Assembly (NCBI GenBank): GCA_012295275.1
Contig: CM022676.1
Coordinates: 15,066,001-15,130,000 of the forward strand
DNA from: Chrysomallon squamiferum
Lineage: Eukaryota > Animalia > Mollusca
Length of the DNA stretch: 64,000 nt
Reading direction: 5' to 3'
The notes beneath the pieces are model-generated. The model did not search any database. It saw nothing but the letters and a program-made list of their open reading frames with translations, and was not told the origin of the DNA. Both the position numbers and the translations under genes were made by a program. Of the stretch, positions 16,702-49,458 are shown one piece after another. The stretch's first letter is position 1; the number at the start of each line of letters is the position of its first letter.

Positions 16702-16887
16702 ATGAACGTGTGGCAGCTGACAGTTGTTTGTGTTCTTGTTTTGCTCGGTGAGGTGGAATCATGCAATCCAGGGGAACTGATAAACAAACATTTCCAGCCA
16801 TGTACGTACACATTTCCAAAAGAAATCCAAAGCACCGCTTCCAAATTCGAGCTGCCCTGCAGACGTCTCCGATTATGCTATGCCTGT
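16702..16887 (+). CDS. Conodipine/group IX PLA2-like secreted protein, divergent paralog D, coding exon 1
   Basis: Signal peptide MNVWQLTVVCVLVLLGEVESC. Motif FELPCRRLRLCYAC has HD replaced by LR. Phase-0 donor TGT|GTAAAT at 16888, at the same position as in copies A-C. Confidence 0.8.
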
Positions 16888-17409: not shown

Positions 17410-17604
17410 GGCAGACAGATAGATGTTTCGAAAGAGTTGTGTGATTTGATGTTCTTCAAGCATCTGGAAAGCGCTTGCGATTTCGAAGATCATTGCTTCC
17501 AAACAGTTATGAAGTTTTATGTAGAAAACACAAAACAGCAACTTATGAACCAAATACCTCCGACTTGGTGCAGACAAAACTGGGTTACCATTTGCGTAAT
17601 TTGA
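17410..17604 (+). CDS. Conodipine/group IX PLA2-like secreted protein, divergent paralog D, coding exon 2
   Basis: Acceptor ttttcgtttgaag|GGC. Encodes GRQIDVSKELCDLMFFKHLESACDFEDHC...PPTWCRQNWVTICVI*. It has the same length (195 nt) and Cys spacing as exon 2 of A-C, and the C-terminal P-x-W-C-x3-W-V-x2-C is typical of conodipine-like proteins. Confidence 0.82.
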   Translation, partial: GRQIDVSKELCDLMFFKHLESACDFEDHCFQTVMKFYVENTKQQLMNQIPPTWCRQNWVTICVI

Positions 17605-19378: not shown

Positions 19379-19561
19379 ATGTTCATCCTTTTGGTGTGTT
19401 TTTATTTCGTATTTTCTGTCGCTGACGTGCACTGTTGTTTCTTTAAGAAGCGTAGTGAGATAATACTGAAGGGTTGGGAACGAGACATCCGTACTGAAAT
19501 GAGGAAATTTTTACCCATGTTTGACAGTTCGTGTAAACGATATGACCTCTATTACATTTGT
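19379..19561 (+). CDS. Conodipine/group IX PLA2-like secreted protein, copy B, coding exon 1
   Basis: ttttgcag acceptor then ATG. Encodes MFILLVCFYFVFSVADVHCCFFKKRSEIILKGWERDIRTEMRKFLPMFDSSCKRYDLYYIC. Donor GTAAGT at 19562. Same 183-nt length as copy A. Confidence 0.78.
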
Positions 19562-19567
19562 GTAAGT

Positions 19568-22500
19568 AAACGTCCTGTTCTCAATTATCTTTGTGTAAGT
19601 AAACGTCATGATCTCAGTTATCTTTGTGTAAGTAAACGCCCTGATATCAGTTATCTTTGTGTAAGTAAACGTCCTGATATCAGTTATCTTTGTGTAACAA
19701 AACGTCCTGATCTCAGTTATCTTGGTGTAAGTAAACGTCCTGATCTCAGTTATCTTTGTGTAAGTAAACGTCCTGATATCAGTTATCTTTGTGTAAGTAA
19801 ACGTCCTGATCTCAGTTATCTTTGTGTAAGGAAACGTCCTGATATGAGTTATCTTTGTGTAACAAAACGTCCTGATCTCAGTTATCTTTGTGTATCTTTG
19901 TGTAAACGTCCTGATCTCAGTTATCTTTCTTTGTGTAAGTAAACGTCCTGATCTCAGTTATCTTTGTGTAAGTAAACGTCCTGATCTCAGTTATCTTTGT
20001 GTAAGTAAAACGTCCTGATCTCAGTTATCTTTGTGTAAGTAAACGTCCTGTCTCAGTTATCTTTGTGTAACAAAACGTCATGATCTCAGTTATTTGTGTA
20101 AAAACGTCCTGATCTGATATCATCTGTGTGTTATAAACGTCCTGATCTCAGTTATCTTTGTGTGTAAACGTCCTGATATCAGTTATCTTTGTGTAAAAAC
20201 GTCCTGATATCAGTTATCTTTGTGTAAAAAACGTCCTGATCTCAGTTATCTTTGTAAATAAACGTCCTGATCTCAGTTATCTTTTTGTGTAAAAACGTCC
20301 TGATCTCAGTTATCTTTGTGTAAGTAAACGTCCTGATCTCAGTTATCTTTGTGTAAGTAAACGTCCTGATCTCAGTTATCTTTGTGTAAGTAAACGTCCT
20401 GATCTCAGTTATCTTTGTGTAAGTAAACGTCCTGATCTCAGTTATCTTCGTGTAACAAAACGTCCTGATCTCAGTTATCTTTGTGTAAGTAAACGTCCTG
20501 ATCTCAGTTATCTTTGTGTAAGTAAACGTCCTGATCTCAGTTATCTTTGTGTTGTAAAAACGTCCTGATCTCAGTTATCTTTTTGTGTAGTAAACGTCCT
20601 GATCTCAGTTATCTTTGTGTAAAACGTCCGTCCTGATCTCAGTTATCTTTGTGTAAGTAAACGTCCTGTTTCTGATGATCAGTTATCTTTGTGTAAAACG
20701 TCCTGATCTCAGTTATCTTTGTGTAAAGTAAACGTCCTGATCTCAGTTATCTTTGTGTAAAAAACGTCCTGATCTCAGTTATCTTTGTGTAAGTAAACGT
20801 CCTGATCTCAGTTATCTTTGTGTAACAAAACGTCCTGATCTCAGTTATCTTTGTGTAAGTAAACGTCCTGATCTCAGTTATCTTTGTGTAAGTAAACGTC
20901 CTGATCTCAGTTATCTTTGTGTAAGTAAACGTCCTGATCTCAGTTATCTTTGTGTAAGTAAACGTCCTGTCCTGATCTCAGTTATCTTTTGTGTAAGTAA
21001 AAACGTCCTGATCTCAGTTATCTTTGTGTAAGTAAACGTCCTGATCTCAGTTATCTTTTTTTGTGTAACAAACGTCCTGATCTCAGTTATCTTTTGTGTA
21101 AGTAAACGTCCTGATCTCAGTTATCTTTGTGTAAGTAAACGTCCTGATCTCAGTTATCTTTGTGTAACAAAACGTCCTGATCTCAGTTATCTTTGTGTAA
21201 GTAAACGTCCTGATCCTCTCAGTTGTGTTTTATCTTTGTGTAAAAAAACGTCCTGATCTCTCAGTATATTTTGTGTAAAAAACGTCCTGATCTCAGTTAT
21301 CTTTGTGTAACAAAACGTCCTGATCTCAGTTATCTTTTGTAAGTAAACGTCCTAAAACGTCCTGATCTCGTCCTGATCTCAGTCTTTTGTGTAAGTAAAC
21401 GTCCTGATCTCAGTTATCTTTCTTTGTGTAAGTAAACGTCCTGATCTCAGTTATCTTTGTGTAAAGTAAACGTCCTGATCTCAGTTATCTTTGTGTAACA
21501 AAAAACGTCCTGATCTCAGTTATCTTTGTGTAAGTAAACGTCCTGATCTCAGTTATCTTTGTGTAAGTAAACGTCCTGATCTCAGTTATCTTTGTGTAAG
21601 TAAAAACGTCCTGATCTCAGTTATCTTTTTGTAAGTAAACGTCCTGATCTCAGTTATTTTCTTTGTGTAAAAGTAAACGTCCTGATCTCAGTTATCTTTG
21701 TGTAAGTAAACGTCCCTGATCTCAGTTATCTTTGTGTAAAGTAAACGTCCTGATCTCAGTTATCTTTGTGTAAACGTCCTGATCTCAGTTATCTTTGTGT
21801 AAGTAAACGTCCTGATCTCAGTTATCTTTGTGTAAGTAAACGTCCTGATCTCAGTTATCTTTGTGTAAGTAAACGTCCTGATCTCAGTTATCTTTGTGTA
21901 AGTAAACGTCCTGATCTCAGTTATCTTTGTGTAAGTAAACGTCCTGATCTCAATTATCTTTGTGTAAGTAAACGTCCTGATCTCAGTTATCTTTGTGTAA
22001 GTAAACGTCCTGATCTCAGTTATCTTTGTAAGTAAACGTCCTGATCTCAGTTTATCTTTGTGTAAGTAAACGTCCTGATCTCAGTTATCTTTGTGTAAGT
22101 AAACGTCCTGATCTCAGTTATCTTTGTGTAAAACGTCCTGATCTCAGTTATCTCTTTGTAAGTAAACGTCCTGATCTCAGTTATCTTTTTGTGTAAGTAA
22201 ACGTCCTGATCTCAGTTATCTTTGTGTAAGTAAACGTCCTGATCTCAGTTATCTTTGTGTAAAAAAACGTCCTGATCTCAGTTATTATCTTTGTGTAAGT
22301 AAACGTCCTGATCTCAGTTATCTTTTTGTGTAAGTAAACGTCCTGATCTCAGTTATCTTTTGTGTAAGTAAACGTCCTGATCTCAGTTATCTTTGTTTGT
22401 AAGTAAAAAACGTCCTGATCTCAGTTATCTTTTGTGTAAGTAAACGTCCTGATCTCAGTTATCTTTGTGTAAGTAAAAACGTCCTGATCTCAGTTATCTT

Positions 22501-25500
22501 TGTGTGTAAAAACGTCCTGATCTCAGTTATCTTTGTGTAAAAAACGTCCTGATCTCAGTTATCTTTGTGTAAACGTCCTGATCTCAGTTATCGTCCTGAT
22601 CTCAGTTATCAGTTTTTTGTGTAAGTAAACGTCCTGATCTCAGTTATCTTTTTGTAAGTAACAAACGTCCTGATCTCAGTTATCTTTGTGTAAGTAAACG
22701 TCCTGATCTCAGTTATCTTTGTGTAAGTAAACGTCCTGATCTCAGTTATCTTTGTGTAAGTAAACGTCCTGATCTCAGTTATCTTTGTGTAAACAAACGT
22801 CCTGATCTCAGTTATCTTTTTATCTTTGTGTAAGTAAACGTCCTGATCTCAGTTATCTTTGTGTAAAAACGTCGTCCTGATCTCAGTTATCTTTGTGTAA
22901 GTAAACGTCCTGATTCTCAGTTATCTTTGTGTGTAAAACGTCGTCCTGAATCAGTTATCCTTTGTGTAAGTAAACGTCCTGATCTCAGTTATCTTTTTGT
23001 AAAGTAAAACGTCCTGATCTCAGTTATCTTTGTGTAAGTAAACGTCCTGATCTCAGTTATCTTTTGTAAAGTAAACGTCCTGATCTCAGTTATCTTTGTG
23101 TAAAGTAAACGTCCTGATCTCAGTTATCTTTTGTGTAAGTAAACGTCCTGATCTCAGTTATCTTTGTGTAAGTAAAACGTCCTGATCTCAGTTATCTTTG
23201 TGTAAGTAAAACGTCCTGATCTCAGTTATCTTTGTGTAAGTAAACGTCCTGATCTCAGTTATCTTTGTGTAAGTAAACGTCCTCCTGATCTCAGTTATCT
23301 TTGTGTAAAAAAACGTCCTGATCTCAGTTATCTTTTTGTAAGTAAACGTCCTGATCTCAGTTATCTTTGTGTAAGTAAACGTCCTGATCTCAGTTATCTT
23401 TGTGTAAGTAAACGTCCTGATCTCAGTTATCTTTTGTGTAAGTAAACGTCCTGATATCTCAGTTATCTTTTTGTGTAAGTAAACGTCCTGATCTCAGTTA
23501 TCTTTGTGTAAGTAAAAACGTCCTGATCTCAGTTATCTTTGTGTAAGTAAACGTCCTGATCTCAGTTATCTTTGTGTAAGTAAACGTCCTGATCTCAGTT
23601 ATCTTTGTGTAAGTAAACGTCCTGATCTCAGTTATCTTTGTGTGTAAGTAAACGTCCTGATCTCAGTTATCTTTGTGTAAACGTCCTGATATCGTCCTGA
23701 TATCAAACGTTATCTTTTTATGTAAGTAAAACGTCCTGATCTCTCAGTTATCTTTGTGTAAAAGTAAACGTCCTGATCTCAGTTATCTTTGTGTAAGTAA
23801 ACGTCCTGATCTCATCATCTTTTTGTGTGTAAGTAAACGTCCTGATCTCAGTTATCTTTGTGTGTAAGTAAACGTCCTGATCTCAGTTATCTTTTTGTGT
23901 AAGTAAACGTCCTGATCTCAGTTATCTTTGTGTAAGTAAACGTCCTGATCTCAGTTATCTTTTGTGTAAGTAAACGTCCTGATATCAGTTATCTTTGTGT
24001 AAAGTAAACGTCCTGATCTCAGTTATCTTTGTCCTGATCAATAAACGTCCTGAAACGTCTGATCTCAGTTATCTTTGTGTAAGTAAACGTCCTGATCTCA
24101 GTTATCTTTGTGTAAGTAAACGTCCTGATCTCAGTTATCTTTGTAAAGTAAACGTCCTGATCTCAGTTATCTTTTGTAAGTAAACGTCCTGATCTCAGTT
24201 ATCTTTGTGTAAGTAAACGTCCTGATCTCAGTTATCTTTTGTGTAAGTAAACGTCCTGATCTCAGTTATCTTTGTGTAAGTAAACGTCGTCCTGATCTCA
24301 GTTATCTTTGTGTAAGTAAAACGTCCTGATATCAGTTATCTTTGTGTAAGTAAACGTCCTGATCTCAGTTATCTTTGTGTAAAAAAACGTCCTGATCTCA
24401 GTTATCTTTGTGTAAGTAAAAACGTCCTGATCTCTTTGTTATCTTTTGTGTAAGTAAAACGTCCTGATCTCATTATCTTTGTGTAAGTAAACGTCCTGAT
24501 CTCAGTTATCTTTGTGTAAGTAAACGTCGTCCTGATCTCAGTTATCTCTCAGTTATCTTTTATCTTTGTGTAAGTAAACGTCCTGATCATCAGTTATCTT
24601 TGTGTAAGTAAACGTCCTGATCTCAGTTATCTTTGTGTAAGTAAACGTCCTGATCTCAGTTATCTTTGTGTAAGTAAACGTCCTGATCTCAGTTATCTTT
24701 GTGTAAGTAAACGTCCTGATCTCAGTTATCTTTGTGTAAAGTAAACGTCCTGATCTCAGTTATCTTTGTGTAAGTAAACGTCCTGATCTCAGTTATCTTT
24801 TTGTGTAAGTAAACGTCCTGATCTCAGTTATCTTTTGTGTAAAAAACGTCCTGATCTCAGTTATCTTTGTGTGTAAGTAAACGTCCTGATCTCAGTTATC
24901 TTTGTGTAAAGTAAAAACGTCCTGATCTCAGTTATCTTTGTGTAAGTAAACGTCCTGATCTCAGTTATCTTTGTGTAAGTAAACGTCCTGATCTCAGTTA
25001 TCTTTTGTGTAAGTAAACGTCCTGATCTCAGTTATCTTTTTGTGTAAACGTAAACGTCCTGATCTCAGTTAATCTTTGTGTAAGTAAACGTCCTGATCTC
25101 AGTTATCTTTGTGTAAGTAAAACGTCCTGATCTCAGTTATCTTTGTGTAAAGTAAACGTCCTGATCTCAGTTATCTTTGTGTAAAAAACGTCCTGATCTC
25201 AGTTATCTTTGTGTAAAGTAAACGTCGTCCTGATCTCAGTTATCTTTGTGTAAAAAACGTCCTGATCTCAGTTATCTTTGTGTAAGTAAACGTCCTGATC
25301 TCAGTTATCTTTGTGTAAGTAAACGTCCTGATCTCTCAGTTATCTTTGTGTAAGTAAACGTCCTGATCTCAGTTATCTTTTTGTAAGTAAACGTCCTGAT
25401 CTCAGTTATCTTTTGTAAGTGTCCTGATCTCAGTTATCTTTGTAAAAAACGTCCTGATCTCAGTTATCTTTGTGTAAGTAAACGTCCTGATCTCAGTTAT

Positions 25501-28500
25501 CTTTGTGTAAGTAAACGTCCTGATCTCAGTTATCTTTTGTGTAACAAAAACGTCCTGATCTCAGTTATCTTTGTGTAAGTAAACGTCCTGATCTCAGTTA
25601 TCTTTGTGTAAGTAAACGTCCTGATCTCAGTTATCTTTTTTTGTGTGTAAGTAAAACGTCCTGATCTCAGTTATCTTTGTGTAAGTAAACGTCCTGATCT
25701 CAGTTATCTTTGTGTAAACGTCCTGATACGTCCTGATCTCAGTTATCTTTTTGTAAAGTAAACGTCCTGATCTCAGTTATCTTTGTGTAAGTAAACGTCC
25801 TGATCTCAGTTATCTTTGTGTAAGTAAACGTCCTGATCTCAGTTATCTTTGTGTAAGTAAACGTCCTGATCTCAGTTATCTTTGTGTAAAGTAAACGTCC
25901 TGATCTCAGTTATCTTTGTGTAAGTAAAACGTCCTGATCTCAGTTATCTTTGTGTAAAGTAAAACGTCCTGATCTCAGTTATCTTTGTGTAAGTAAAACG
26001 TCCTGATCTCAGTTATCTTTTGTGTAAGTAAAACGTCCTGATCTCAGTTATCTTTTGTGTAAGTAAACGTCCTGATCTCAGTTATCTTTGTGTAAGTAAA
26101 AACGTCCTGATCTCAGTTATCTTTGTGTAAGTAAAAACGTCCTGATCAGTTTATCTCTTTGTGTAAGTAAAACGTCCTCATCTCAGTTATCTTTGTGTAA
26201 GTAAACGTCCTGATCTCAGTTATCTTTTTGTGTAAGTAAACGTCCTGATCTCAGTTATCTTTGTGTAAAAAACGTCCTGATCTCAGTTATTATCTTTGTG
26301 TAAGTAAACGTCCTGATCTCAGTTATCTTTGTGTAAGTAAACGTCCTGATCTCAGTTATCTTTGTGTGTAAGTAAACGTCCTGATCTCAGTTATCTTTGT
26401 GTAAGTAAACGTCCTCCTGATCTCAGTTATCTTTTGTGTAAGTAAACGTCCTGATCTCAGTTATCTTTGTGTAAAAAAACGTCCTGATCTCAGTTATCTT
26501 TGTGTAAAGTAAACGTCCTGATCTCAGTTATCTTTTGTGTAAAGTAAACGTCCTGATCTCAGTTATCTTTTGTGTAAGTAAACGTCCTGATCTCAGTTAT
26601 CTTTTGTGTAAAGTAAACGTCCTGATCTCAGTTATCTTTTTGTAAAAAAAACGTCCTGATCTCAGTTATCTTTTGTGTGTCAACGTCCTGATTATCAGTT
26701 ATCTTTGTGTAAGTAAACGTCCTGATCTCAGTTATCTTTTTGTGTAAACGTCCGTCCTGATCTCAGTTATCTTTGTGTAAGTAAACGTCCTGATCTCAGT
26801 TATCTTTGTGTAAGTAAACGTCCTGATCTCAGTTATCTTTGTGTAAGTAAACGTCCTGATCTCAGTTATCTTTGTGTAAGTAAACGTCCTGATCTCAGTT
26901 ATCTTTGTGTAAAGTAAACGTCCTGATCTCAGTTATCTTTGTGTGTAGTAAAACGTCCTGATCTCAGTTATCTTTTTTGTGTGTAAACGTAAACGTCCTG
27001 ATCTCAGTTATCTTTGTGTAAGTAAACGTCCTGATCTCAGTTATCTTTGTTATAAAAAAAACGTCCTGATCTCAGTTATCTTTGTGTAAGTAAAAACGTC
27101 TGATCTCAGTTATCTTTGTGTAAAGTAAACGTCCTGATCTCAGTTATCTTTGTGTAAAACGTCCTGATGTCCTGATCTCAGTTATCTTTGTGTAAAAAAC
27201 GTCCTGATCTCAGTTATCTTTGTGTAAGTAAACGTCCTGATCGTCCTGATCATTTATCTTTTTGTAAGTAAAACGTCGTCCTGATCTCAGTTATCTTTGT
27301 AAGTAAAAACGTCCTGATCTCAGTTATCTTTTGTGTAAGTAAAACGTCCTGATCTCTGATCTCAGTTCTCATATCTTTGTGTAAGTAAACGTCCTGATCT
27401 CAGTTATCTTTGTGTAAAGTAAACGTCCTGATCTCAGTTATCTTTTGTGTAAGTAAACGTCCTGATCTCTCAGTTATCTTTGTGTAAGTAAACGTCCTGA
27501 TCTCAGTTATCTTTGTGTAAAAAAAACGTCCTGATCTCAGTTATCTTTGTGTAAGTAAACGTCCTGATCTCAGTTATCTTTGTGTAAGTAAACGTCCTGA
27601 TCTCAGTTATCTTTGTGTAAAGTAAACGTCCTGATCTCAGTTATCTTTGTGTGTAAGTAAACGTCCTGATCTCAATATCTTTATCTTTGTGTAAGTAAAC
27701 GTCCTGATCTCAGTTATCTTTGTGTAAGTAAAACGTCCTGATCTCAGTTATCTTTTTTGTAAAAACGTCCTGATCTCAGTTATCTTTGTGTAAGTAAAAA
27801 ACGTCCTGATCTCAGTTATCTTTTGTGTAAAAAACGTCCTGATCTCAGTTATCTTTGTGTAACAAAACGTCCTGATCTCAGTTATCTTTGTGTAAGTAAA
27901 CGTCCTGATCTCAGTTATCTTTGTGTAAGTAAAAACGTCCTGATCTCAGTTATCTTTGTGTAAGTAAACGTCCTGATCTCAGTTATCTTTGTGTAAGTAA
28001 ACGTCCTGATCTCAGTTATCTTTGTGTAAGTAAACGTCCTGATCTCAGTTATCTTTGTAACAAACGTCCTGATCTCAGTTATCTTTTGTGTAAGTAAACG
28101 TCCTGATCTCAGTTATCTTTGTGTAACAAACGTCCTGATCTCAGTTATCTTTGTGTAAGTAAACGTCCTGATCTCAGTTATCTTTGTGTAAGTAAACGTC
28201 CTGATATCAGTTATCTTTGTGTAACAAAACGTCATGATCTCAGTTATCTTTGTGTAAGTAAACGTCCTGATCTCAGTTATCTTTGTGTAATAAAACGTCC
28301 TGATCTCAGTTATCTTTTGTAAGTAAACGTCCTGATCTCAGTTATCTTTGTTTTGTAAAACGTCCGTCCTGATCTCAGTTATCTTTGTGTAAAAAAACGT
28401 CCTGATCTCAGTTATCTTTTTTGTAAAGTAAACGTCGTCTGATCTCAGTTATCTTTGTGTAAAAAACGTCCTGATCTCAGTTATCTTTGTGTAAGTAAAC

Positions 28501-30061
28501 GTCCTGATCTCAGTTATCTTTTGTGTAAGTAAACGTCCTGATCTCAAATCTTTGTGTGTAAGTAAACGTCCTGATCTCAGTTATCTTTGTGTAAGTAAAC
28601 GTCCTGATCTCAGTTATCTTTGTGTAAGTAAACGTCCTGATCTCAGTTATCTTTGTGTAAGTAAACGTCCTGATCTCAGTTATCTTTGTGTAAGTAAACG
28701 TCCTGATCTCAGTTATTTTGTGTAAGTAAACGTCCTGATCTCAGTTATCTTTGTGTAAAAGTAAACGTCCTGATCTCAGTTATCTTTGTGTAAGTAAACG
28801 TCCTGATCTCAGTTATCTTTTGTAAGTAAACGTCCTGATCTCAGTTATCTTTTTGTGTAAGTAAACGTCCTGATCTCAGTTATCTTTGTGTGTAAACGTC
28901 CTGATCAATCTATCTTTGTCCGTCCTGATATCTTTGTGTAAGTAAAACGTCCTGATCTCAGTTATCTTTGTGTGTAAGTAAACGTCCTGATCTCAGTTAT
29001 CTTTCTGTAAAAAACGTCCTGATCTCAGTTATCTTTTTTGTAAAGTAAACGTCCTGATATCATGTTATCTTTTTGTAAAGTAAACGTCCTGATCTCAGTT
29101 ATCTTTTGTGTAAGTAAACGTCCTGATATCTGTTATCTTTTTGTAAGTAAACGTCCTGATATCAGTTATCTTTGTGTAACAAAACGTCCTGATCTCAGTT
29201 ATCTTTGTGTAAGTAAACGTCCTGATATCAGTTATCTTTTTGTGTAAAAAACGTCCTGATATCAGTTATCTTTTGTAACAAAACGTCCTGATCTCAGTTA
29301 TCTTTGTGTAAGTAAAAACGTCCTGATCTCATTTATCTTTTTTTGTAAGTAAACGTCATGATCTCAGTTATCTTTGTGTAACAAACGTTCTCATCTCATT
29401 TATCTTTTGTAAGTAAACGTCATCCTCATATCTGTTATCTTTGTGTATGTAAACGTCCTCATATCTGTTATCTTTGTGTAAGTAAACGTCCTCATATCAG
29501 TTCTCTTTGTGTAACAAACCGTCATGATCTCAGTTATCTTTGTTTAAGTAAACGTTCTGATCTCTGTTATCTTTGTGTAAGTATCCGTCCTGATCTCGGT
29601 TATTTTTTTGTAAGTAAACGTCCTGATCTGAGTTACCTTTGTGTAATTAAACATCCTGATCTCAGTTATCTGTGTGTAAACGTCCTCATCTCGTCCTGAT
29701 CTCCTGTTATATTATGTTTGTGTAAGTAAACGTCGTGATTTCTCTTATCTTTGTGTAAGTAAACGTCTTGATCTGAGTTACATTTGTGTAAGTAAACGTC
29801 CAGATCTCAGTTACCTTTGTGTAAGTAAAAGTCCTGATATCAGTTATCTTTGTGTAACAAAACGTCCTGATCTCAGTTATCTTTGTGTAAGTAAACGTCC
29901 TGATATCTGTTATCTTTGTGTAAGTAAACGTCATGGTATCAGTAATCTTTCTGTAAGGAAACGTCCTGATATGAGCTATGTTTCTGGAAGTAAACGTCCT
30001 GATATCAATTATCTTTGTTTAAGTAAACGTCTGGATTTCAGTTATCTTTGTCTAAGTAAAC
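19568..30061 (+). repeat. 33-bp tandem array, ~10.5 kb (roughly 320 units), of exon end plus splice donor
   Basis: Same unit as 1319-1903. In frame for about the first 11 units, indel-ridden in the centre, and substitution-diverged at the 3' edge. Confidence 0.97.
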
Positions 30062-30317: not shown

Positions 30318-30512
30318 GGGAAAGCGTTGAACAATGATAAGAGTTACTGTGACTTCTGGTTTTTCAAACATCTTGAAGCACGATCCAACATGAGGAAGGA
30401 GTGTCAAAGCGCGCTATTATATTTCTTTAAAAACAACATTCAAAACGCAGATGTATTAGACCATTCACCAAACATGTGTAAAAGTATTGATATCCAGAGG
30501 TGCATCGTTTAA
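30318..30512 (+). CDS. Conodipine/group IX PLA2-like secreted protein, copy B, coding exon 2
   Basis: Acceptor tttcgtatttcag|GGG. Encodes GKALNNDKSYCDFWFFKHLEARSNMRKEC...SPNMCKSIDIQRCIV*. AATAAA follows the stop. Confidence 0.78.
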   Translation, partial: GKALNNDKSYCDFWFFKHLEARSNMRKECQSALLYFFKNNIQNADVLDHSPNMCKSIDIQRCIV

Positions 30513-32100: not shown

Positions 32101-32174
<74 letters not shown>

Positions 32175-32579
32175 GTTATTATTATTGATGTTGTTGTTGT
32201 TCTTATTGTTGTTGTTGTTACATATCATTATTTTCGTTTTTAAGCTCTTTATTTGTGTTTTAATTGATCATTACGTACCGCCGACATCCTCTGTACCTAC
32301 CTACAGACAGGCAGATGCATAGACTGATAGACAGATTGACTGTCTGACAGATTTAATGACAAACAGACAAATGTTGAGAAATGATATTTATTCATTTATT
32401 TATTTACTTCTTTCCTTCTGTACTAATTTTTGTAAATTAATTAATTTACTTATTTATTCATTTACCTATTTGCTTTTGTACTTAATTGTTTAAACATTAT
32501 TTTGATTATTAGCAGTATCTTTTTTTCTTTCGTTCTCTTTGATTTATTTGTTTTATTTTATTTTATTTTATTTTGCAGA

Positions 32580-32762
32580 ATGTTCATCCTTTTGGTGTGT
32601 TTTTATTTCGTAGCATCTGTGGATCACACGCAGTGTTGTTTGTACAAGAAGAATAGTGAGATAATACTGCAGGGTTGCAAACGAGACATCCGCACTGAAA
32701 TGCAGAAATTTTTACCCATGTTTGAGAGTTCGTGTAAACGATATGACCTCTGCTGCCTTTGT
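32580..32762 (+). CDS. Conodipine/group IX PLA2-like secreted protein, copy C, coding exon 1
   Basis: Near-identical to copy A exon 1 (2 aa differences). Donor GTAAGT at 32763. Confidence 0.8.
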
Positions 32763-32768
32763 GTAAGT

Positions 32769-33194
32769 AAACGACATGATCTCAGTAATCTTTGTGTAAA
32801 TCGTAAACGTCCTGATCTCAGTTATCTTTGTGTAAGTAAACGTCCTGATCTCAGTTATCTTTGTGTAAGTAAACGTCCTGATCTCAGTTATCTTTGTGTA
32901 AGTAAACGTCCTGATCTCAGTTATCTTTGTGTAAGTAAACGTCCTGATCTCAGTTATCTTTGTGTAAGTAAACGTCCTGATCTCAGTTATCTTTGTGTAA
33001 GTAAACGTCCTGATCTAAGTTATCTTTGTGTAAGTAAACGTCCTGATCTCAGTTATCTTTGTGTAAGTAAACGTCCTGATCTCAGTTATCTTTGTGTAAG
33101 TAAACGTCCTGATCTCAGTTATCTTTGTGTAAGTAAACGTCCTGATCTCAGTTATCTTTGTGTAAGTAAACGTCCTGATCTCAGTTATCTTTGT
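32769..33194 (+). repeat. 33-bp tandem array (~13 units) of exon end plus splice donor
   Basis: Same unit. The first unit reads KRHDLSNLC|GTAAAT and is followed by a 3-nt insertion. The array is entirely in frame. Confidence 0.97.
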
Positions 33195-33630
33195 GAATAT
33201 ATGACATTATCTCAGTCATTTTTGTGTATAAAAATCACGTGTTACAAATAACGTGATCTGAGTTATATCTGTGTAACAGAGGACAGGTTATCTAAGTATT
33301 AGTAAACGACACACATATAATGCTACACTCTCTCCATGACGCACACACATATATACATATAAATATACGTACATATTTATATATGTATATGTATACAAAT
33401 GTACAAAAACGCAGAAACATATACACAAATATACAAACATAGACATGCATACGTACACAGAAACACACATACAAAAACACACGTATAAGCACAGAAATAT
33501 ATCCTAGCACACATATACACGCATACACGCACATATACAAATTCAGAGAGATGCATACACAGAGCAAAACACACATTCTGTCCTAAATACATACACAGTA
33601 ACACACATTTAAAATCGTTTCGTATTTCAG

Positions 33631-33825
33631 GGGAGAGCGTTGAACAATGATAAGACTTACTGTGACTTCTGGTTTTTCAAACATCTTGAAGCCAGATGCA
33701 ACATGAGAATGCAGTGTCTAAGTGCGCTATTATATTTCTTTGGAACTAACGTTCACAACACAAGTGTTTTACCTCCTTCACCAAAGATGTGTAAAAGCAT
33801 CGTTGTCCAGAGGTGCATCGTTTAA
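33631..33825 (+). CDS. Conodipine/group IX PLA2-like secreted protein, copy C, coding exon 2
   Basis: Acceptor tttcag|GGG at 33630. Encodes GRALNNDKTYCDFWFFKHLEARCNMRMQC...SPKMCKSIVVQRCIV*. Confidence 0.8.
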   Translation, partial: GRALNNDKTYCDFWFFKHLEARCNMRMQCLSALLYFFGTNVHNTSVLPPSPKMCKSIVVQRCIV

Positions 33826-34845
33826 CCAAAGCAAATAAACGATGCTGAAGATATCCTTGATTTTGTCGTTTCTTTCTGCCTGTAGTACTAATAGTATTAC
33901 TAACTATTCTTACTGTAATTTCTACTGCTATCACTACTAGTACTAGTCTCGACATAGAACATTTACTTCCAATACTGAACTAATATCTACTACTATTACT
34001 ATACTTGTAGTAATTACTAACACGACTTCTAGAACTAATAATACTAGAATCATTACTACTAGTAGTAACATTAGTGTTATTGCTATTACTACTACCATTC
34101 CAACCTTTACTACTACTGCATCTGGTGTTATTACTACTACTGTTACATCAATAACAACTGCTACTACTACAACTACTATTATCACTATTGTTGCTGTTCC
34201 TAGTACTACTACATACTTACATAGGTTGAAAAACTCTTATCCGAATATACAGTGATGCCTTGTCGTTTAAGTTAACATTAGTAACTATAGAGAGATGCAA
34301 AACAAATAAGATAACAAATATCTGCACGCTCTCTTCTATTAGTTTTATTATTATTATTAAAAAAAAAAAAAAAAAATCCTTATTTTAATTGTCATTGCAT
34401 ATTTCCTGCAAATACTAGCAAACATTAACCGTGTTTCAATTTCTCACTGATATTCACTCTTAGTCTTCAAACAGTGATACCGACGCGTTGATTGGAAACT
34501 CGGCATTACCGCTTTTATTGGTCGTAAAAATATCGCCAAAACCGTTCAGAAATGTTGGCCATAAACTTTTTCTCTATAACCCTTTATTTCCATCTGCATT
34601 TTGTTATTACTTTCCTGCGCTAATAGGTGCTGAAATGCGCGATTCAATTAGCAGCCTGTGATAAAGACGTTTGCAATGAATACAGGTGTAAATTATGAAT
34701 TTCACACAGCTAAGTCCTATAATGAAAGAACAAGTCTAAAGAAATTTAATCACAATCATTCAGAAAGGTTTATACAGTCCGATCAAATAGGCTCTTTTGC
34801 ATAATTATAATAATAATAATAACAATAATAATAGTAGTAGTAATT

Positions 34846-34906
<61 letters not shown>

Positions 34907-35965
34907 GAATAATTAAAATAATTAAAATAATGATAATAATAATAATAATGATAATAATAATAATAAATCCAAAATGAAAGTCAGAAAGAGAGAAAGAAAA
35001 GTATTTGATGATCAAAATGTTGATGGTGATGACGACGGTAGTAATTCCGTAAGTGTGCAATCATTACTGTAATGACACTCACACCTATACTACTACTACT
35101 GCTACTACCACCACCACCACTACTACTACAGTGACTGTTATTACTAAAACCTCTGCTACTATTACAGTGATTTTTATTATTAACACCTCTACTACTACTA
35201 CTAGTAGAACTACAACAACCACTGCTACTACTACATTAACAGTTGTTACTGACATCTGTTCTACTGCTGTTGAGACTACCACCGCTACTACTACTACTTC
35301 TACTACAACCACCACCACTACTGTCACTACTACTACTACTTTACAACAATGAGTCTTATTACTACTTATTTTACTATTACTTTGGTATTTCTGGTATCAG
35401 TTATCACAATTTTGCTTCTTTATTGTTCTTCTTTCTTATCTTGTTCTACTCCGTCTATCCAAGTTAACTACCGTTACGCAAGTTCCGTCTGCGATAGAAA
35501 CTCAAATGAAAGTTGATGTTACGTCACGATTCGTCGGTGACACTAATTCCCGCTCTGTCATGTGACGTGATTGTGACGTCACGGAGCCAGGCGACACTGC
35601 GACTGGCGGATGACAAAGAGTTAATTATTTCATGCTGGATTATCTTGTCAGAATTAACACTGACGTGTCTCTTATCTGATTATCGTGTCACAGTCGGCAA
35701 TTAGAATGACAGCAAGCTTTAAAGTGAATAGATTTTAAAAACTACCAAACACTGAGTTTGAATAAATGGTTTTATTTAATTATTATTAGTTGTAATAGTA
35801 GTAGCAACAGTACTATTAGTAATAGTAATAATAGCAGTAATAGTAGTAACAGTAATATTAATAATAGTAATAATAGCAGTAATAGTAGTAACAGTAATAG
35901 AAACTGCATTAGTAGCAGTAGTAGTGTTAGTAGTAGTACAACTTATTGTTTATGCGTCTTTTTAT

Positions 35966-36063
<98 letters not shown>

Positions 36064-36475
36064 TGAGTATTAAAAATGTGTATATGTGTGTGTTTAACCA
36101 AAAATGAATTTAAAGTTTCAATGAAAGAACGAATAAATAAACAAACAAATAAATAAATAAATAAATAAACACTATGATACATTATTTAGTGTCTACGAAA
36201 TACAGTCATAAATTACTGATTAACGTCACGACTTCTACCCACAGCTGGTGCGACAATTGTTTTTTATATATTTTCTTTTTACTTTGAACCATCATTCCAG
36301 AATAATAAATTCAGTTTTAGCTTGTCCACTGTTTACACTGTCAAACGTTTGATCTGGTATTTTCTGTTTATTTATACTCCTCTCTCTCCCACAACTGGTG
36401 CGAATACGTTCCTGAATAATAAATTCAGTTTTAACTTTACTACTGTTCAGACTGTCAAGCATTAGATCCAGCACA

Positions 36476-36518
<43 letters not shown>

Positions 36519-36522
36519 CAAA

Positions 36523-36627
<105 letters not shown>

Positions 36628-36990
36628 GAATACAAATACAAAAAAAATAGGAAGGAAAGAAAAATGTATAACATTCTTTATTAGTAAAAAGTACTATTGT
36701 ATACAATAACTATTTTGATACTCTTCTTTAGTATTTACTTTATGCAGTACAATAAATGAATAAACATGTTTTGCAAATTTCTGGTATTATAATTGTAGAT
36801 TTTGCTGGTAGTTGCCAATCGATAAAATAACAATAATGTAATATGATGATAAATGACGTTTTATAAAAATTGACATTCCTGTATACAAGATACTTGATTA
36901 AAACAAAATATTAAACTTTATAAACGAATATCCCTTCTGATAAAAGGAGAAAAGTACGTTTTTACTTGATATTTATTAACTAGATAATAA

Positions 36991-37062
<72 letters not shown>

Positions 37063-37132
37063 CACAATAACAAGAGAACAAGTATGTAAGAAAGTTTTGA
37101 AAAATGTGTACGTAATAAAAAGTTGATAACAT

Positions 37133-38591
37133 TTATCCAAACAAGAGTTGTCGTTCATGGTAATTATTGATGATTAAATCCGACAGAAGGCGATTGTTAC
37201 TAGCACGTGATTTGTAGATATCGACAGAATCGAAATTTCGAGATTTTGCAATTTTGTTAGAATGGAACGATTTTCTAGTCCGGATGTCGCAAACATCTGC
37301 CGAGTACGCATGCGTGTATTCATACTCTTCTGCCTCGTGCGTTGCCTGTTGATCTGTGTGTGTTCTGTTACTCGTGTTACTGAGCTGTTCAATCGAATCA
37401 GTCTGCAGGTCAGTTACAGAACAAGAAAGCCTGCACACAGAAGTATTTTCTTCCACGCTGTTGTGTTTGTCCGTGTGTGCTTCTGTCATAAGTGAACTGG
37501 TTTTAGATTTGGACCGTCCTGAGTTCAAATCTCTCACCTGTCTAAGAGATTTTGTTTTCGGAGCGGTTTGAGTCGCTGAAAGTCTGTTTGTGATGAGACG
37601 AACGTGAAATGTTTTGTCTGAGCCGCTGTTCACCTCGGCTCGTCTTTTCACTGAGGCCTGCACACGAAAGTGAAGCACACTGAGAACAGGGTGTGTCGCT
37701 GTAACGAGTCTGGTCCGCGCGGCTGTGTATCACACACGTCCTACACGTGCCAGCCAGTTTGGCAAGATCGCATTTCCACGTTTTGCTCATCCGAAATTCA
37801 GTCTCGTAGTAACCGCTACTGTTCTCCGATTCGGAATAGTCCGCCAGAGCGCCTTCGTCATCGGAATAGCTTTTAGACACCAAATGACATCCTTGTATCT
37901 GTGACGTCATAGACAGAGTAGAGACAGTCGTCATGGATTCGCTGTCAGACTCCTCGTTGACTGGCGTCATCTGTTGGATTATCTCCCTTATTTTGCACTT
38001 GTGGGCTAAGTTTTGCTCAATTCTCGCTAACTGCAACTCGTAATTCGTGGGATCTCCGTCGCTGGAGGTGCTGACGTCATACCCGCAGCCCGTGTCGCTG
38101 CTCGCCAACAAGCTGTAGTCTCCGCAGTGCATCGGTCGATGTTCTCCCGTTTCCGGAAAACTGTCTGAACTTAAGTGACTAATGTCCACTGGACAGCACC
38201 GCTGTGAATCCGACAAGTCGTACGTGAGATCCACGCCACTCGAACTTGTTTCCGTGTTGCAGGACATGGACCAATTACGCCGACCAGTCAGAGTACAAGC
38301 GAAAACCGACGAAGCACGAGATCGGACTGTTGTGTCTCCGTCAGTTCTCGAACGGATATCAGGCTCGGGAATGTTTACCACCATGTAAGGTCCGTCCTGG
38401 CTTTGAAACTCTCCCTTGAAATCACCGTTTCTCCGTGTCTCCCGATCACACTGAAAATGCAGGTCGGAAATCTCCTCATAAATGTGGTAGTCCTTTGAGC
38501 CGAGATTCTCCTCGTTGAATCCGTACTCGCTGTCTGGCGGCTTGGAAGCAGGCGTCTTCTGCCTTCGCCTTCCTTTCAACCATCGAAACAT
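37133..38591 (-). pseudogene. Uncharacterised Ser-rich gene, copy 2 (56-nt frameshifting deletion at ~37560)
   Basis: Paralogous to 5817-7329 but lacks the equivalent of 6245-6300, which truncates the ORF at ~350 aa. Confidence 0.72.
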
Positions 38592-38898
38592 CCTCAACTC
38601 TCGCAACGATCTGGCAGTTAGCAGTCAACAGCTGCGTTCAGTCCTGAAGAAAAATATAAAATAAATAAATAAATCATACGTCGACTACGACTACTACTAC
38701 TACTACTACCACTACTGCTACTAGTAGTAGTAGTAATAATAAAGATAATAGTATAGATAATAAGAAGACATTTAGAAAAGGAAAAAGAAAAGAAAATGTC
38801 AGTCATGCACGTGGTACACAGAATATCTGACAAGGGGTCTGTTGGTTAAATTCTAAGAAGACAGCGAGGCAGAGGTAGACTATAAAATTAAATTAAAA

Positions 38899-38929
<31 letters not shown>

Positions 38930-38952
38930 CAAAACTACTACTACTACTACTG

Positions 38953-38991
<39 letters not shown>

Positions 38992-40097
38992 ATAATAATA
39001 ATAATAATAATAATAAAATTTAAATTTAAATTAAAAACAGTAAAAAGATATCACGTTATCTGTCGTGTTTTCTCTGTTTAACGAATCCATGATTTTTATA
39101 TTTCGCTCGTTGACGATGAGTGTTTGTAGTAACAGTAAGAGCGAACAAAACTAAAGTTTAATACCAGTACATAATTATTTTAATATTGATAAAACATTTA
39201 TTTCATTGAGCGTAAACCTAATTTTATTTTATTTTGTTATTTTAATACATTTTATTTTATCTACTTGTGTTTTATCTTACATTACATTACTTTTCTTTAC
39301 ATTATATTATGTTATATTATGTCATATTATGTTATGTCATATGATATTACAATTTTATATTAGAGTTGATCATTCAGGTTTTAGTTAATCAGATGTTAAT
39401 GGCTGAAAATGTGTTATTTTCATGTATGTGCATTTTTTAAATCTATATTGTGGCTAAACAAAAAATATTAAACTAAACAAAAATGGCAGATTTGGTATCC
39501 TTGTCATTTTGCCTTACTCCACAGCAATAAAAAACAGATTAAAACGTCGATGTTGACAAAGTAGACGTCAGATACAATGCGACTTTTATCACAAATTAAT
39601 CATCCAGAAAGTCCTTACACTGTGAAAAAAAAGGTTATGAACACAGCTGTCAAGAACATGTACCACAGAACATCATGGAGCATAGAAGCTAACGGAATAT
39701 AGAACAACATCAAACACAGAAATTTAAAAAAAAAAAAAAATAAGACTTAGAACAATGAGGAACACGGAACACGACGGAAACCTCTGATAAATAAATAAAA
39801 TTTAAATTAAAATTATTAAAAAATTATTAAAAAAAAATATCGAGGATCCAAGGATCTCCATTTTTGGGTGAAATGCGAGATGGCGACCAATCTGAAAGTG
39901 GTCACTGAAAATAAAACGACTCGCCGAGTCCAGACCTGACTTCGCTGTTGTTCTCTGGCGTTCATCAGACTCTCGGTTTCTGTACCCATTGTCGCGTTGT
40001 CGCGTTGTCGTGTTGTCGTGTTGTCGTGTTGTCTATTGACAGAGGTAACATAATAGTTTGTAAAAGTAGCTGTCTAAGCTACTTCTACAAACACACA

Positions 40098-42050: not shown

Positions 42051-42428
42051 TACAAAATAAGTATATAGATATATAGATATATAATAATGAATTTCTATTT
42101 TTTAATGATTATTATCTTTCTGTTTGTTTCTCAGTAAGGTTGCTTCATCTTTACAAAATTATTTTTATTTCCATTAACCATCTTTACCATGAATTCAATT
42201 CTCGTCTTCTTTGTAATTTTTTCAAAGAAATATTAACTGCTGTCTATATGTTGAAATTTTTTTGTTTCTTATTTTTATTTTTTTTTTTTTTGTAAATGTT
42301 CGATAAAATAAATAAATAAATAAATAAACAAACAAAAGAACAGGAAAAACAAAAGAAAAGAAGAAATACATAAATAAAAACAAGGAAAACAACTGACATT
42401 TTGGTATCCAGTGGTTAAATAAAGTGTT

Positions 42429-42506
<78 letters not shown>

Positions 42507-42785
42507 GAATAGAAGAAATTCAAAAGACACTTTGAGATATTTATTCACAGAAACAAGGTAAGGCTATCAGTATCACAGCCAGTATTCAAGTATTAAAAGC
42601 ACATACAAGGATTTGTAAAACAAAAATTACAAATAGAAAAGAAAAATAATTATTCAGTGTGTTACAGGCTTATAGATCTGAACTATATCTGACACCCCAG
42701 CATTTAAAAAAAAATAATAATAATAATAATAATACATATAAAAATTATTGGTTGTAAATAATACAGAAATTTAATGGCATTAAGT

Positions 42786-42832
<47 letters not shown>

Positions 42833-44680
42833 CTTATTAATCTACCTGTAAATGTTGTCATTACACAAACTGTATAATTTTATACTGTTTATTGTTAATG
42901 TTTGCTGTAGGTAGCTGACCCTTCCAGCCATTTTGTGTAAGTACAGTGCAGGAAACTAACAGAAAAATAAAAACAAAATAACGAATTTTAAATAAGTAAA
43001 TAAAGTAATTAATTAATTTATTTATTTATTTATTTAAATTAGAGAATAATTTTAAATAAAAGAAGAAGAGAACAGAAAAATAAAACTACTAATTATATAA
43101 CAATGTGAAAACAAATATATAAATATAAAAACCGATACTTTCAAGTTTATTTACAAATAACAATAAAGATAATAACATTAAACACAAAATATAAAAATAA
43201 TAATAATAATAATAATAATAATAAGTGAAAAACAAAAACAGAATGTTGCAAATATTACATTAGACACTTTACATTATAAATACTACCAGAAATAATTAAT
43301 ACTTTATCACATAATTAATTTATTATAATAATTAACCACTTACTAAGTTTCATAATAAATTTTCCAGGAAAATTAGTCAAATGCTATAGGTAGTGTTATG
43401 GTTGTACATGCATGTAATAATACATAGTAATAAAGCTTAAATATTTCTGTCAAATTTAGCAATGGCTTAATTTGGTTTAGACAATAATAATTAGCAGGGA
43501 TTTAAAAATGAAAAAAATTAATAAAAAAATAGAGCAAGATAATTTAATCAAAACATATCCTGCAAAGAAAGATTTAAAATAATATTTTACGATATTACTG
43601 CCCTGTATTAATAACTGATATTATGCATCTAGATGATGATAATGATGATAAGGATGATCAAGAGGATTAAAATGGAGACTTTTACATGACAATACAGGAA
43701 GATTTTGTAGATGATAAATCAATTAATCTATAAATAAATGATGATATTGAAAAATATAAATAATAATAATAACAAAATGGTCATTTCTAACTAGATTATA
43801 AAGGCCATTATTTCTATATGGTGTAAATTCTACAAATACTGCTTACATTCATGTGTGCACTTTTGCAAATATTAAATACGTTTCTATAACACTGTTAGAA
43901 ACTGAAATATGTTTATATTATATTTTATATTATAATTATTTAAAACGATAAATTGCTAATTTCTTTTAATATACAAGTTATCTCTTTCTTGCTTATTTGG
44001 TTAGTATTCAAATTAGAGAATTTGTTAAATGTTAAAAAAATAAAGTTTAATATACATGACAGGCTGATGAAAACAGATGTGGATGACTAATCGAAGAAAT
44101 GATAAATATGTTTTAAACTAATGGATGATAAAACTGGTTAATTTTACTTATAGAAGTTGAACTTAATGAATACATGTCATGCTATAATAGACCTAGTGTA
44201 TTTTGTATATTACAGTTTTACTTGTACCAGCCTTTCCTAATAATAAAGTATAACACTATTTTAACAAGCGAGTAAATAAAGGATGAGTTACACAATATTT
44301 TATTTTTTTTTTTTATTAAATTGATTTCTATGTCATAAAATATGAGTGATATAAAAGTAAACCTCACAGACTGAGTAAATTTGTGTAATATGCTGGCATA
44401 CTCAGTCTTTTACAGCATTTTGTATGAATTAATGATGTTATGATAGAAAATAAATATAGTACCGGCAGACACATTTTTGTCTGACTTTAATTAGCACATA
44501 ATGGAAGCTGTAGCAGAAGTAAACAAAACACACACAAAATTATGACTATATCCAGCGGTTCAAAAGACATATTGAAATCAGTACGACAGGTATTTGGTTG
44601 GTTTTCAGTCCTGTTTTGGCTAATTAATTTATTTATCTAATTCTATGGTTTCAATACATATAAATATTTATTATAATCTT

Positions 44681-44731
<51 letters not shown>

Positions 44732-45026
44732 TTTGTTTATTTGTATTTGAACAGGTATGATATCAGTTCATACTGAGTTTATTCTTTCCAACTTATTTTC
44801 TTTTTCAAATACGTGGTTAGTCTGATTTATTTTATTTAAGGGTACACCAACCCTCGCACGTTGCAAATACAAAGCAGACTTCATTTCAGTTGAATAACAT
44901 GGCTGGTCAGTGGGTGTATGTCTTTAGTGAACCCCACGAGGATAAAATGAATGAATGTATCAAAAATATATAAATAAATCAATAAATAAATATACATCAT
45001 TCCGTGTCTTAGAGAGAGAGAGAGAT

Positions 45027-45102
<76 letters not shown>

Positions 45103-45430
45103 TGTGTGTGTGTGTGTGTGTGTGTCTGTGTGTTTGTGTTTTTTGTTTTGTCAATAGACAACACGAAAGTAGCTCAGACAGCTACTTTTACAAACTATTA
45201 TGTTGCCTCTGTCAATAGACAACGCGACAACACGACAACACGACAACGCGACAACACGACAACACGACAACGCGACAACGCGACAATGGGTACAGAAACC
45301 GAGAGTCTTATGAACGCCAGAGAACAACAGCGAAGTCAGGTCTGGACTCGGCGAGTCGTGTTATTTTCAGTCACCACTTTCAGACTGGTCGCCAGCTCGC
45401 ATTTCACCCAAAAATGGCGACCTTGGATCC

Positions 45431-45471
<41 letters not shown>

Positions 45472-45924
45472 TTTTTTTATATTATTTTTTTTTTATTTGT
45501 TTTTATTTAAATTTTATTTATTTATCACAGGTTTCCGTCGTGTTCCGTGTTCCTCATTGTTCTAAGTTTTATTTTTCTGTGTTTGGTGTTGTTCTATATT
45601 CCCTTAGGTTCTATGCTCCATGATGTTCTGTGCTGCATGTTCTTCACAGCTGTGTTCATAACCTTTTTTTTCTCAGTGTAAGGACTTTCTTGATGATTAA
45701 TTTGTGATAAAAGTCGCATTGTGTCTGATGTCTACTTTCTCAACATCGACGTTTTAATCTGTTTTTATTGCTGTGGAGTAATTGCCTAACAAAACTGTCG
45801 TTCTATATCCCACGTTTTCCTTTCCTTTGGGATCTCTACGTAGTTTCCCAAAACAAAACTTTCATTCATTGACAACAGTACTTTCAACCATCTCTGTGGA
45901 CCGTAAAACTACACACATCCAACG

Positions 45925-46030
<106 letters not shown>

Positions 46031-46129
46031 GTTACTTAGAGGTATTACATTTTATTTGTGGATTTATGAACGTTAAAAATGTTCAATTTGATTTTTGTTA
46101 GGTCATTGTCATGTTTGTACCTAAATTCT

Positions 46130-46255
<126 letters not shown>

Positions 46256-46795
46256 ACGTAATCTCAGTCCTAGAGGCAAAGCTGATCATCATCCGCTGCT
46301 AGCGAAATATATAATATAATATAACATAACATAATATAATATAATATAATATAATATAATATAATATAATATAATATAATATAATATAATATAAATAGAT
46401 AATGTAATATAATCTTATATGAGATGATATATGACATAACATAATATAATATAATATAATAATATAAAATATAATGTAATGAAAATTAATGTAATGTATG
46501 ATAAAACAGAAGTAGATAAAATAAAATGAAGTAAAATAATAAAATAAAATAAAATAAAATAAAATAAAATAAAATTAGGTTTACGCTCAATGAAATAAAT
46601 GTTTTATCAGTATTAAAATAATTATGTACTGGTATTAAACGTCAGTTTTGTTCGATCTGACTGTTACTGCAAACACTCATCTTCAGCGACCGAAATATAA
46701 AAATCATTGATTCGTTAAACAGAGAAAACATGACAGCTAACGTGATATCTTTTTACACTTTTTAATTTTAATTTTAATTTTATTATTATTATTAC

Positions 46796-46874
<79 letters not shown>

Positions 46875-47094
46875 TAGTTAGTTAGTTATTTTAATTTTAT
46901 TTTATTATTTCTTTACTTATTTATTTTAATTTTATTTTATTCTCTACCTCTGTTTCGCTGTCTTCTTACAATTTAACCAACACATATTCAGTGTACCACG
47001 TGCTTGATTGACATCTTCTTTTCTTCTTTCTTTTCTAAATTTCTTCTTATTATTTATACTATTATCATTATTATTATTACTACTAGTATGTTAC

Positions 47095-47125
<31 letters not shown>

Positions 47126-47239
47126 CGCAGTCGACGTACCATTTATTTATTTATTTATTTATTTATTTTTTATATATTTTGCTTGAGTTCTGAACGCAGC
47201 TGTTGAGTGCTAACTGCCAGATCGTCGCGAAAGTTGAGG

Positions 47240-48513: not shown

Positions 48514-48593
48514 ATGTTATCAAATTTTTATTACGTACACATTTTTCAAAACTTTCTTACATACTTGTTCTCTTGTTATTGTGATTATTATTA

Positions 48594-48658
<65 letters not shown>

Positions 48659-49102
48659 TGTATCTAGTTAATAAATATTAAGTAAAAACGTACTTTTCTC
48701 CTTTTATCAGAAGGGATATTCGTTTATAAAGTTTAATATTTTGTTTTAATCAAGTATCTTGTATAGAGAAATGTCAATTTTTATAAAACGTCATTTATCA
48801 TCATATTACATTATTATTATTTTATCGATTGGCAACTACCGGCATCATCTACAATTATATCAGAAATTTGCAAAACATGTTTATTCATTTATTGTACTGC
48901 ATACAGTAAATACTAAAGAAAAGTATCAAAATAATTATTGTATACAATAGTACGTTTTACTAATAAAGAATGTTATACATTTTTCTTTCATTCCTACTTT
49001 TTTGTATTTGTATTCGGTAGAGAGAGAGAAAGAAAGAGAGAAAGAGAGAGATAGTGAGTGTATGAGTGTGTGTGTGTTTGTGTGTGTGAGTGTGTGTGTG
49101 TG

Positions 49103-49180
<78 letters not shown>

Positions 49181-49258
49181 ACTAGTTAGGATGCTTGACA
49201 GTCTGAACAGTAGAAAAGTTAAAACTGAATTCATTATTCAGGAACGTATTCGCACCAG

Positions 49259-49458
49259 NNNNNNNNNNNNNNNNNNNNNNNNNNNNNNNNNNNNNNNNNN
49301 NNNNNNNNNNNNNNNNNNNNNNNNNNNNNNNNNNNNNNNNNNNNNNNNNNNNNNNNNNNNNNNNNNNNNNNNNNNNNNNNNNNNNNNNNNNNNNNNNNNN
49401 NNNNNNNNNNNNNNNNNNNNNNNNNNNNNNNNNNNNNNNNNNNNNNNNNNNNNNNNNN
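49259..49458. other. Assembly gap (200 N)
   Basis: Run of N. The sequence on either side is unrelated. Confidence 0.99.

Follow-up and report, generated by a model that had tools for sequence, protein, structure and literature searches.

Rare His-Asp units in a donor-duplicating intronic minisatellite of phospholipase A2-like genes: probable relics of a lost catalytic codon

Four PLA2-like genes and their surroundings

The window, i.e. the whole stretch of 64 kb of DNA analysed here, is animal-type DNA, AT-rich and with many microsatellites. It carries four paralogous genes on the plus strand, denoted A, B, C and D, each of which consists of two coding exons separated by a phase-0 intron (Table 1). 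Reading frames and splice sites are intact in all four. At the protein level, A and C are 92-97% identical (97% in exon 1), B shares approximately 74% identity with both of them, and D is down to about 30%. Exon 1 of B lacks several cysteines present in A and C. By eye, the N-terminus is hydrophobic, and the products are candidate secreted proteins. Among A, B and C, dN/dS lies between 0.64 and 0.70, a ratio that is based on few changes and is compatible with weak constraint without being decisive.

Table 1. Positions of PLA2-like exons, minisatellite arrays and in-frame His-Asp units in the window.
Feature	Position	Strand	Remarks
Copy A, coding exon 1	1130..1312	+	end reads KRYDLCCLC (1286)
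Array A	1319..1940	+	about 19 units, opening with an ordinary consensus unit that has no His and closing with a degenerate one (1908, CAT)
Copy A, coding exon 2	2343..2537	+
Paralog D, exon 1	16702..16887	+	ends C-R-R-L-R-L-C-Y-A-C, no His-Asp; donor GTAAAT
Paralog D, exon 2	17410..17604	+	30% identity to C
Copy B, coding exon 1	19379..19561	+	ends C-K-R-Y-D-L-Y-Y-I-C (KRYDLYYIC, 19535)
Array B	19568..30061	+	about 310-312 units of 33 bp
Copy B, unit 2	19601..19633	+	KRHDLSYLC; donor GTAAGT at 19628
Copy B, coding exon 2	30318..30512	+
Copy C, coding exon 1	32580..32762	+	hydrophobic N-terminus; ends F-x3-C-K-R-Y-D-L-C-C-L-C (KRYDLCCLC, 32736)
Copy C, exon-1 donor	32763	+	GTAAGT, phase-0
Copy C, unit 1	32769..32804	+	36 bp; KRHDLSNLC; CGA codon; donor GTAAAT at 32796
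Array C after unit 1	32805..33230	+	consensus Pro units, closed by a degenerate one (33199, CAT)
Copy C, coding exon 2	33631..33825	+	64 codons and stop; C-D retained

All four proteins likely adopt a PLA2 fold of the PF09056 (group XIII/XIV) type, an assignment for which the sequence evidence is weak but concordant. The window genes share with secreted group XIII/XIV enzymes (PF09056; 4AUP, 1FAZ) the pattern F-x3-C-x2-[H]-D-x-C-Y ... C-D-x2-F-x3-[ML]-x3-C ... C, which is split collinearly over the two exons. They differ from these enzymes in that the position of the catalytic His is occupied by Tyr in A, B and C (Tyr-Asp), and by Leu in D, where the Asp is also exchanged for Arg (Leu-Arg), and the overall similarity is weak. 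In exon 2, C11 and D12 are invariant in 4 out of 4 paralogs; we take the Asp of this C-D pair to be the second catalytic Asp, which lies in the next helix of secreted PLA2s.

Support for the family comes mainly from profile comparisons, for which bacterial PF09056 matches were gathered from 2 of 301 and 7 of 401 genomes. A profile of two bacterial sequences matches solved group XIII/XIV PLA2s (4AUP with E = 3e-10, 1FAZ with E = 5e-6, as well as 7YGK and 8K1W). The exon-1 alignment meets this profile with its end at positions 32-48 (P = 0.005, hhalign probability only 7%) and the exon-2 alignment with its start at positions 50-72 (P = 0.013, hhalign probability only 3%), i.e. the two matches are adjacent and in collinear order. 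With a second profile, made from eight of nine bacterial loci after the one without the selection motif (L008) had been dropped, the four second exons were equalled or beaten by 0, 2, 0 and 0 of 500 shuffles and exon 1 of D was equalled by 3 of 500, while exon 1 of A, B and C scored weakly (36-66 of 500 shuffles equally good). The selection motif enforces Cys at -3, His, Asp and an aromatic residue at +4, so that counts in these profile columns are circular and the PDB alignments serve as the independent view: there, the solved relatives keep Cys -3 and Tyr +4 and carry Gly at +3. For exon 2 of D, the ESM Atlas returned PF09056 and PF06951 clusters below threshold (PF09056 on 27% of the members, with a score of 0.83 below the 0.9 line), and it returned nothing for exon 1 of C.

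Other searches were negative. None of seven single-exon queries matched a PLA2 family in a Pfam scan, and PDB sequence searches with the exons gave non-significant matches only. Structure models of the protein halves are of low confidence (pLDDT 46 and 52), and the fold search ended in generic helical matches (best Z 5.0). When single exons or alignments of them were used to look for homologues, no usable relative emerged (none among 593 and none among 25 candidate stretches), apart from one spurious repeat protein and two short, chance-like bacterial matches; the bacterial PF09056 seed search found no relatives, and the search for the repeat pattern had 0 matches. Animal group IX or conodipine-like proteins are presumably nearer kin of the window genes; the homologue searches recovered no member sequence of them. 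Conodipine annotation is not confined to venom, as one report gives such genes for bivalve gonad (PMC8892766). Nor did the homologue searches find a relative of A-D with an exonic His, and hence a His-bearing ancestor is deduced from the distant bacterial and fungal enzymes.

As all four exons are devoid of the catalytic His, A, B, C and D look like pseudoenzymes on the basis of their sequences. Catalytically inactive PLA2 homologues exist, such as the snake Lys49 PLA2s and PLA2G12B. These likewise retain the PLA2 fold after loss of a catalytic or Ca-binding residue, but belong to another PLA2 group than the window proteins. Paralog D, with its motif C-R-R-L-R-L-C-Y-A-C and no array in its intron, apparently lost the His-Asp pair separately, and its sequence suggests that inactive secreted proteins with a PLA2 fold may form a larger family.

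Several further features were observed in the window. Recent segmental duplications at 700-8100, 32160-39360 and 42060-49260 (92-97% identity, one of them inverted) carry the PLA2-like gene and also an unannotated pair of long minus-strand ORFs (5820-7362 and 37136-38624, with the inverted copy at 47194-48510); two of these ORFs were tested against Pfam and gave no match. Exons of a gene with Ig and fibronectin-III domains lie on the minus strand at 61127-63165. The stretches 51196-52657 and 58487-59333 hold a 27-bp array of 54 copies, open in more than one frame, and a second array whose period is close to 32 bp, and at 49518-49673 a duplicated 78-bp Cys/His-rich segment adjoins an N gap.

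The 33-bp minisatellite and its rare His-Asp units

The introns of A, B and C each carry, following the donor, a minisatellite whose 33-bp unit corresponds to the last 27 coding bases of exon 1 (9 codons) plus GTAAGT, such that exon end and donor together make up the first monomer. The unit matches each of the three exon ends in 25 and differs in 8 of 33 bases, and its consensus reads KRPDLSYLC(VS). The arrays comprise 19.3 (A), 312.5 (B) and 14.3 (C) copies. Indel-aware parsing gave 349 units, of which we counted the 345 with at least 24 aligned bases (20 in A, 310 in B and 15 in C). Between 20000 and 29300, the centre of array B shows many 1-base homopolymer indels, which are absent from arrays A and C; this part looks like unpolished long-read error.

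Exon 1 stays open through arrays A and C without a stop (frames 1064-1957 and 32445-33248), and the odd units of 30 and 36 bp keep the frame; array B leaves it after about 11 units. Judged from these frames, an unspliced or late-donor transcript of A or C would be translated into repeats of 11 residues with Cys. We do not see coding constraint on the array, as 23 of 129 substitutions (hand count) fall on third codon positions, which make up 6 of the 19 columns.

At the position of the catalytic His, the 345 units show CCT in 325, CAT in nine, TCT in two and TAT in no case. In columns 4-22 of the unit, we found 129 substitutions of 37 types out of 57 possible ones. The commonest are CTC>ATC (28 units), C>A in the His codon (9), AGT>TGT (9) and AGT>AAT (7). 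Counts near homopolymer indels are soft: a gap-free parse of 299 units gave 18 and 6 for the first two. The His units are tied second among the 37 types, with nine observed against a uniform expectation of 2.3 (Poisson P = 5.7e-4, Bonferroni 0.03), which is above chance; however, the units share descent and are not independent, and the relic units of A and C count as one event.

An earlier note on this DNA had read the exon ends of A, B and C and the array consensus as given above, and all of these readings were found in the sequence. It had also pointed to unit 1 of array C with its exon-type CGA codon and to unit 2 of array B, both in frame and followed by GT donors, which their coordinates confirm (Table 1), and to further CATGAT motifs at 20079, 28233, 29357 and 29523, which are indeed there. 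Three units had escaped that note (A 1908, B 29926 and C 33199), so that the nine CAT units are A 1908, B 19601, 20073, 28227, 29351, 29517 and 29926, and C 32769 and 33199. Of these, just two, C 32769 and B 19601, can be read in frame from the exon with no stop in between.

A public DNA run, possibly from the source sample or a close relative, was compared with the locus; the statements on it cover the 40 of 202 variants and the 24 of 192 loose ends that were listed. Among these variants, CAT occurs in 213 of a depth of 460 at 32911, whereas an exonic His is absent. Two of six loose ends listed show a diverged unit, both reading CAT GAC with the exon-type GAC; the consensuses of diverged units come from 7 contigs with an agreement of 0.87 and from 4 contigs with 0.68. 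At 32755, 68% of the depth gives Tyr at +4 in the exon. The run contains a genomic form without the His unit of C. A 36-base skip is seen in it, and at 32787 the whole depth (689 of 689) carries T, the A of copy C (the AAT state) being absent from the contigs. The listed variants also imply units in which the Cys is kept. At 33015-33018, three variants have a similar high depth, about 9,000-9,900 of 22,000-25,000; provided that these changes are linked on one contig, they hint at a subfamily of units with many copies in other parts of the genome that reads D-K-C-Y, with the Cys kept. The RNA runs (X2-X4) do not cover the exons and say nothing about expression.

Donor choice and a possible restoration of the active site

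As one of two possibilities, the earlier note had named a splice-switchable enzyme: use of the donor at 32796 or 19628 would place His-Asp in the canonical register before exon 2. On this view, His-Asp would come to lie in the active-site helix and phospholipase activity would be restored. There are features in agreement with this proposal. The two in-frame His units occupy array positions 1 and 2 and are followed by GT donors; the donor GTAAAT of the C unit is off-consensus, but the same hexamer serves as exon donor of D; and exon 2 retains C-D in all four paralogs. As to the predicted canonical register, the exon's distance to exon 2 is indeed kept, whereas the residues around the His-Asp pair are not the canonical ones.

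In both in-frame units, the context C-x-x-H-D-x-C fails, as they read S-K-R-H-D-L-S: Cys -3 is replaced by a Ser which the donor itself supplies, Cys +3 is likewise Ser, and the C unit in addition has Asn for Tyr +4. The PROSITE PA2_HIS pattern, as quoted in one paper (PMC6409743), requires the cysteines of this context, and so does the motif DACCxxHDxC in another (PMC6635587). With either donor in use, the exon motif, itself intact with its Cys, would be followed by an insert of 11 or 22 residues. When exon 1 and the His unit were scored contiguously, the PLA2 profile took the exon Tyr register in 2 of 2 cases, with low scores. From these sequence relations, the geometry of the His units would speak against a restored active site. 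Furthermore, copy A has no His unit at the array start in spite of its near-identity to C, the units of B and C differ in position and flanks, the AAT state of the C unit is missing from the DNA run, and D lost its His-Asp pair without any array. Taken together, we regard the splice switch as extremely improbable. The broader idea that the ancestral active-site codon is kept in store by the minisatellite, from which donor choice or exchange with the exon would let some copies regain a His-Asp enzyme in the manner of a repeat-switched pseudoenzyme, fares hardly better and is in our opinion highly improbable as well.

Nor do the donors single out the His units. The 9-mer of the exon donor, TGT/GTAAGT, recurs at 17 of 18 array donors in A, 168 of 263 in B and 11 of 13 in C, and therefore the donors of the His units are not special; that of the B unit is identical to 168 other array donors. 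In two human genes with a comparable minisatellite, 6-16 and CBS, two pseudo-sites are used besides the authentic donor, which in 6-16 are the two most proximal ones, as stated for mammals (PMC1557585). By analogy, minor use of array positions 1 and 2, where the two in-frame His units lie, is plausible with no function implied, and we consider such minor use of proximal donors possible but somewhat doubtful.

Leaky proximal donors might still produce minor in-frame isoforms with one or more Cys-containing inserts of 11 residues, which would have a non-enzymatic function and in which the His would be incidental. The array donors equal to the exon donor, the two proximal pseudo-sites of 6-16 and CBS, and the frame maintained throughout arrays A and C (with one 30-bp and one 36-bp unit) would fit such inserts. 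On the other hand, any 33-bp unit taken from the end of a phase-0 exon must be in frame, array B soon leaves the frame, and third codon positions are not enriched among the substitutions. Functional insert isoforms thus seem improbable to us.

Origin of the His-Asp units

The reading that we prefer from the sequences is that the rare His-Asp units are probably a leftover of the codon of an ancestral enzyme. The claim of the earlier note that the array arose while the gene still encoded His is fairly well supported by parsimony, by linked rare variants at the array edges and by CAT in the diverged units of the DNA run. Starting from a His ancestor, hand parsimony requires two codon changes if the array was copied from a His-bearing exon (one to Tyr in the exon and one to Pro in the array), and three if it was copied after the change to Tyr. 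The rare changes are moreover linked across arrays. The pair CAT and AAT (with its A at 32787 in C) is common to C 32769 and B 29926 only, and CAT preceded by the A of the exon-type CGA (xGA-CAT) is confined to C 32769 and the degenerate units that close arrays A and C. According to the sequences, a single crossover between the exon end and a consensus unit cannot yield CGA CAT.

Alternatively, the array could have arisen after the exon had already acquired Tyr. The CAT units would then be recurrent or transitional variants, due to a C>A bias, to an intermediate stage between TAT and CCT or partly to assembly error, and their His would be a coincidence. This view draws on the fact that the most frequent variant, CTC>ATC, is also C>A and without catalytic meaning, that both C>A changes create palindromes (GATATC and TCATGA), and that a mutational or assembly bias could therefore remake CAT; the centre of array B, moreover, looks error-prone. 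With the unit already 8 of 33 bases away from each exon end, one further change is cheap. TCT, the other intermediate from TAT, exists in two units, and none of the 345 units joins CAT with TGT, i.e. His with Cys. Yet a late array demands an extra change that lands exactly on His, TAT itself occurs in none of the 345 units, CAT goes together with further rare changes in different arrays and at either end of them, and the diverged units of the DNA run read CAT GAC. We therefore hold a late origin of the array to be rather unlikely.

Returning to an array born with His, we envisage the following course. The common ancestor of A, B and C, still with His, would have undergone a tandem duplication across the exon-intron boundary. 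The exon would later have changed from His to Tyr, while unequal exchange may have swept the array to its Pro/Ser consensus and spared mainly the edge units. As in human F7, splicing would mostly take place at the first donor, the one or two donors behind it being used leakily at most, and the proteins A-D would be catalytically dead secreted PLA2-fold proteins. The His-Asp units would accordingly survive from an older unit that was copied before the gene lost its His, and it seems likely that they have no enzymatic role today.

If true, an intronic repeat would constitute a readable record of a lost catalytic codon, and the order of events in the making of a pseudoenzyme family could be read as birth of the array followed by loss of His. 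A splice-switched enzyme would have been remarkable, but the sequence argues against it. The locus is also an extreme case in which nature puts 5' splice-site choice to the test, since in this invertebrate-type genome as many as 168 identical donors of in-frame type follow the real one.

Minisatellites that start with a monomer lying across an exon-intron boundary have been described before, namely in human F7 IVS7 (37 bp), 6-16 intron 2, CBS IVS13, LMNB2 and PDGF intron 4, and in F7, LMNB2 and PDGF the authentic donor is the only one used (PMC1557585). A literature search for the exact situation observed here found no report, which is not proof of its being unpublished. Donor-duplicating minisatellites are a known class, and the twist of the present case is a repeat that likely preserves a lost catalytic codon. 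The window arrays resemble F7- and CBS-type minisatellites in two respects: the exon end lies within the first monomer, and identical copies of the donor recur along the intron as pseudo-sites. They differ in that 27 of the 33 bases of the window unit are a coding copy, in frame, that the arrays reach about 310 units, and that the repeated motif is the former active-site motif.
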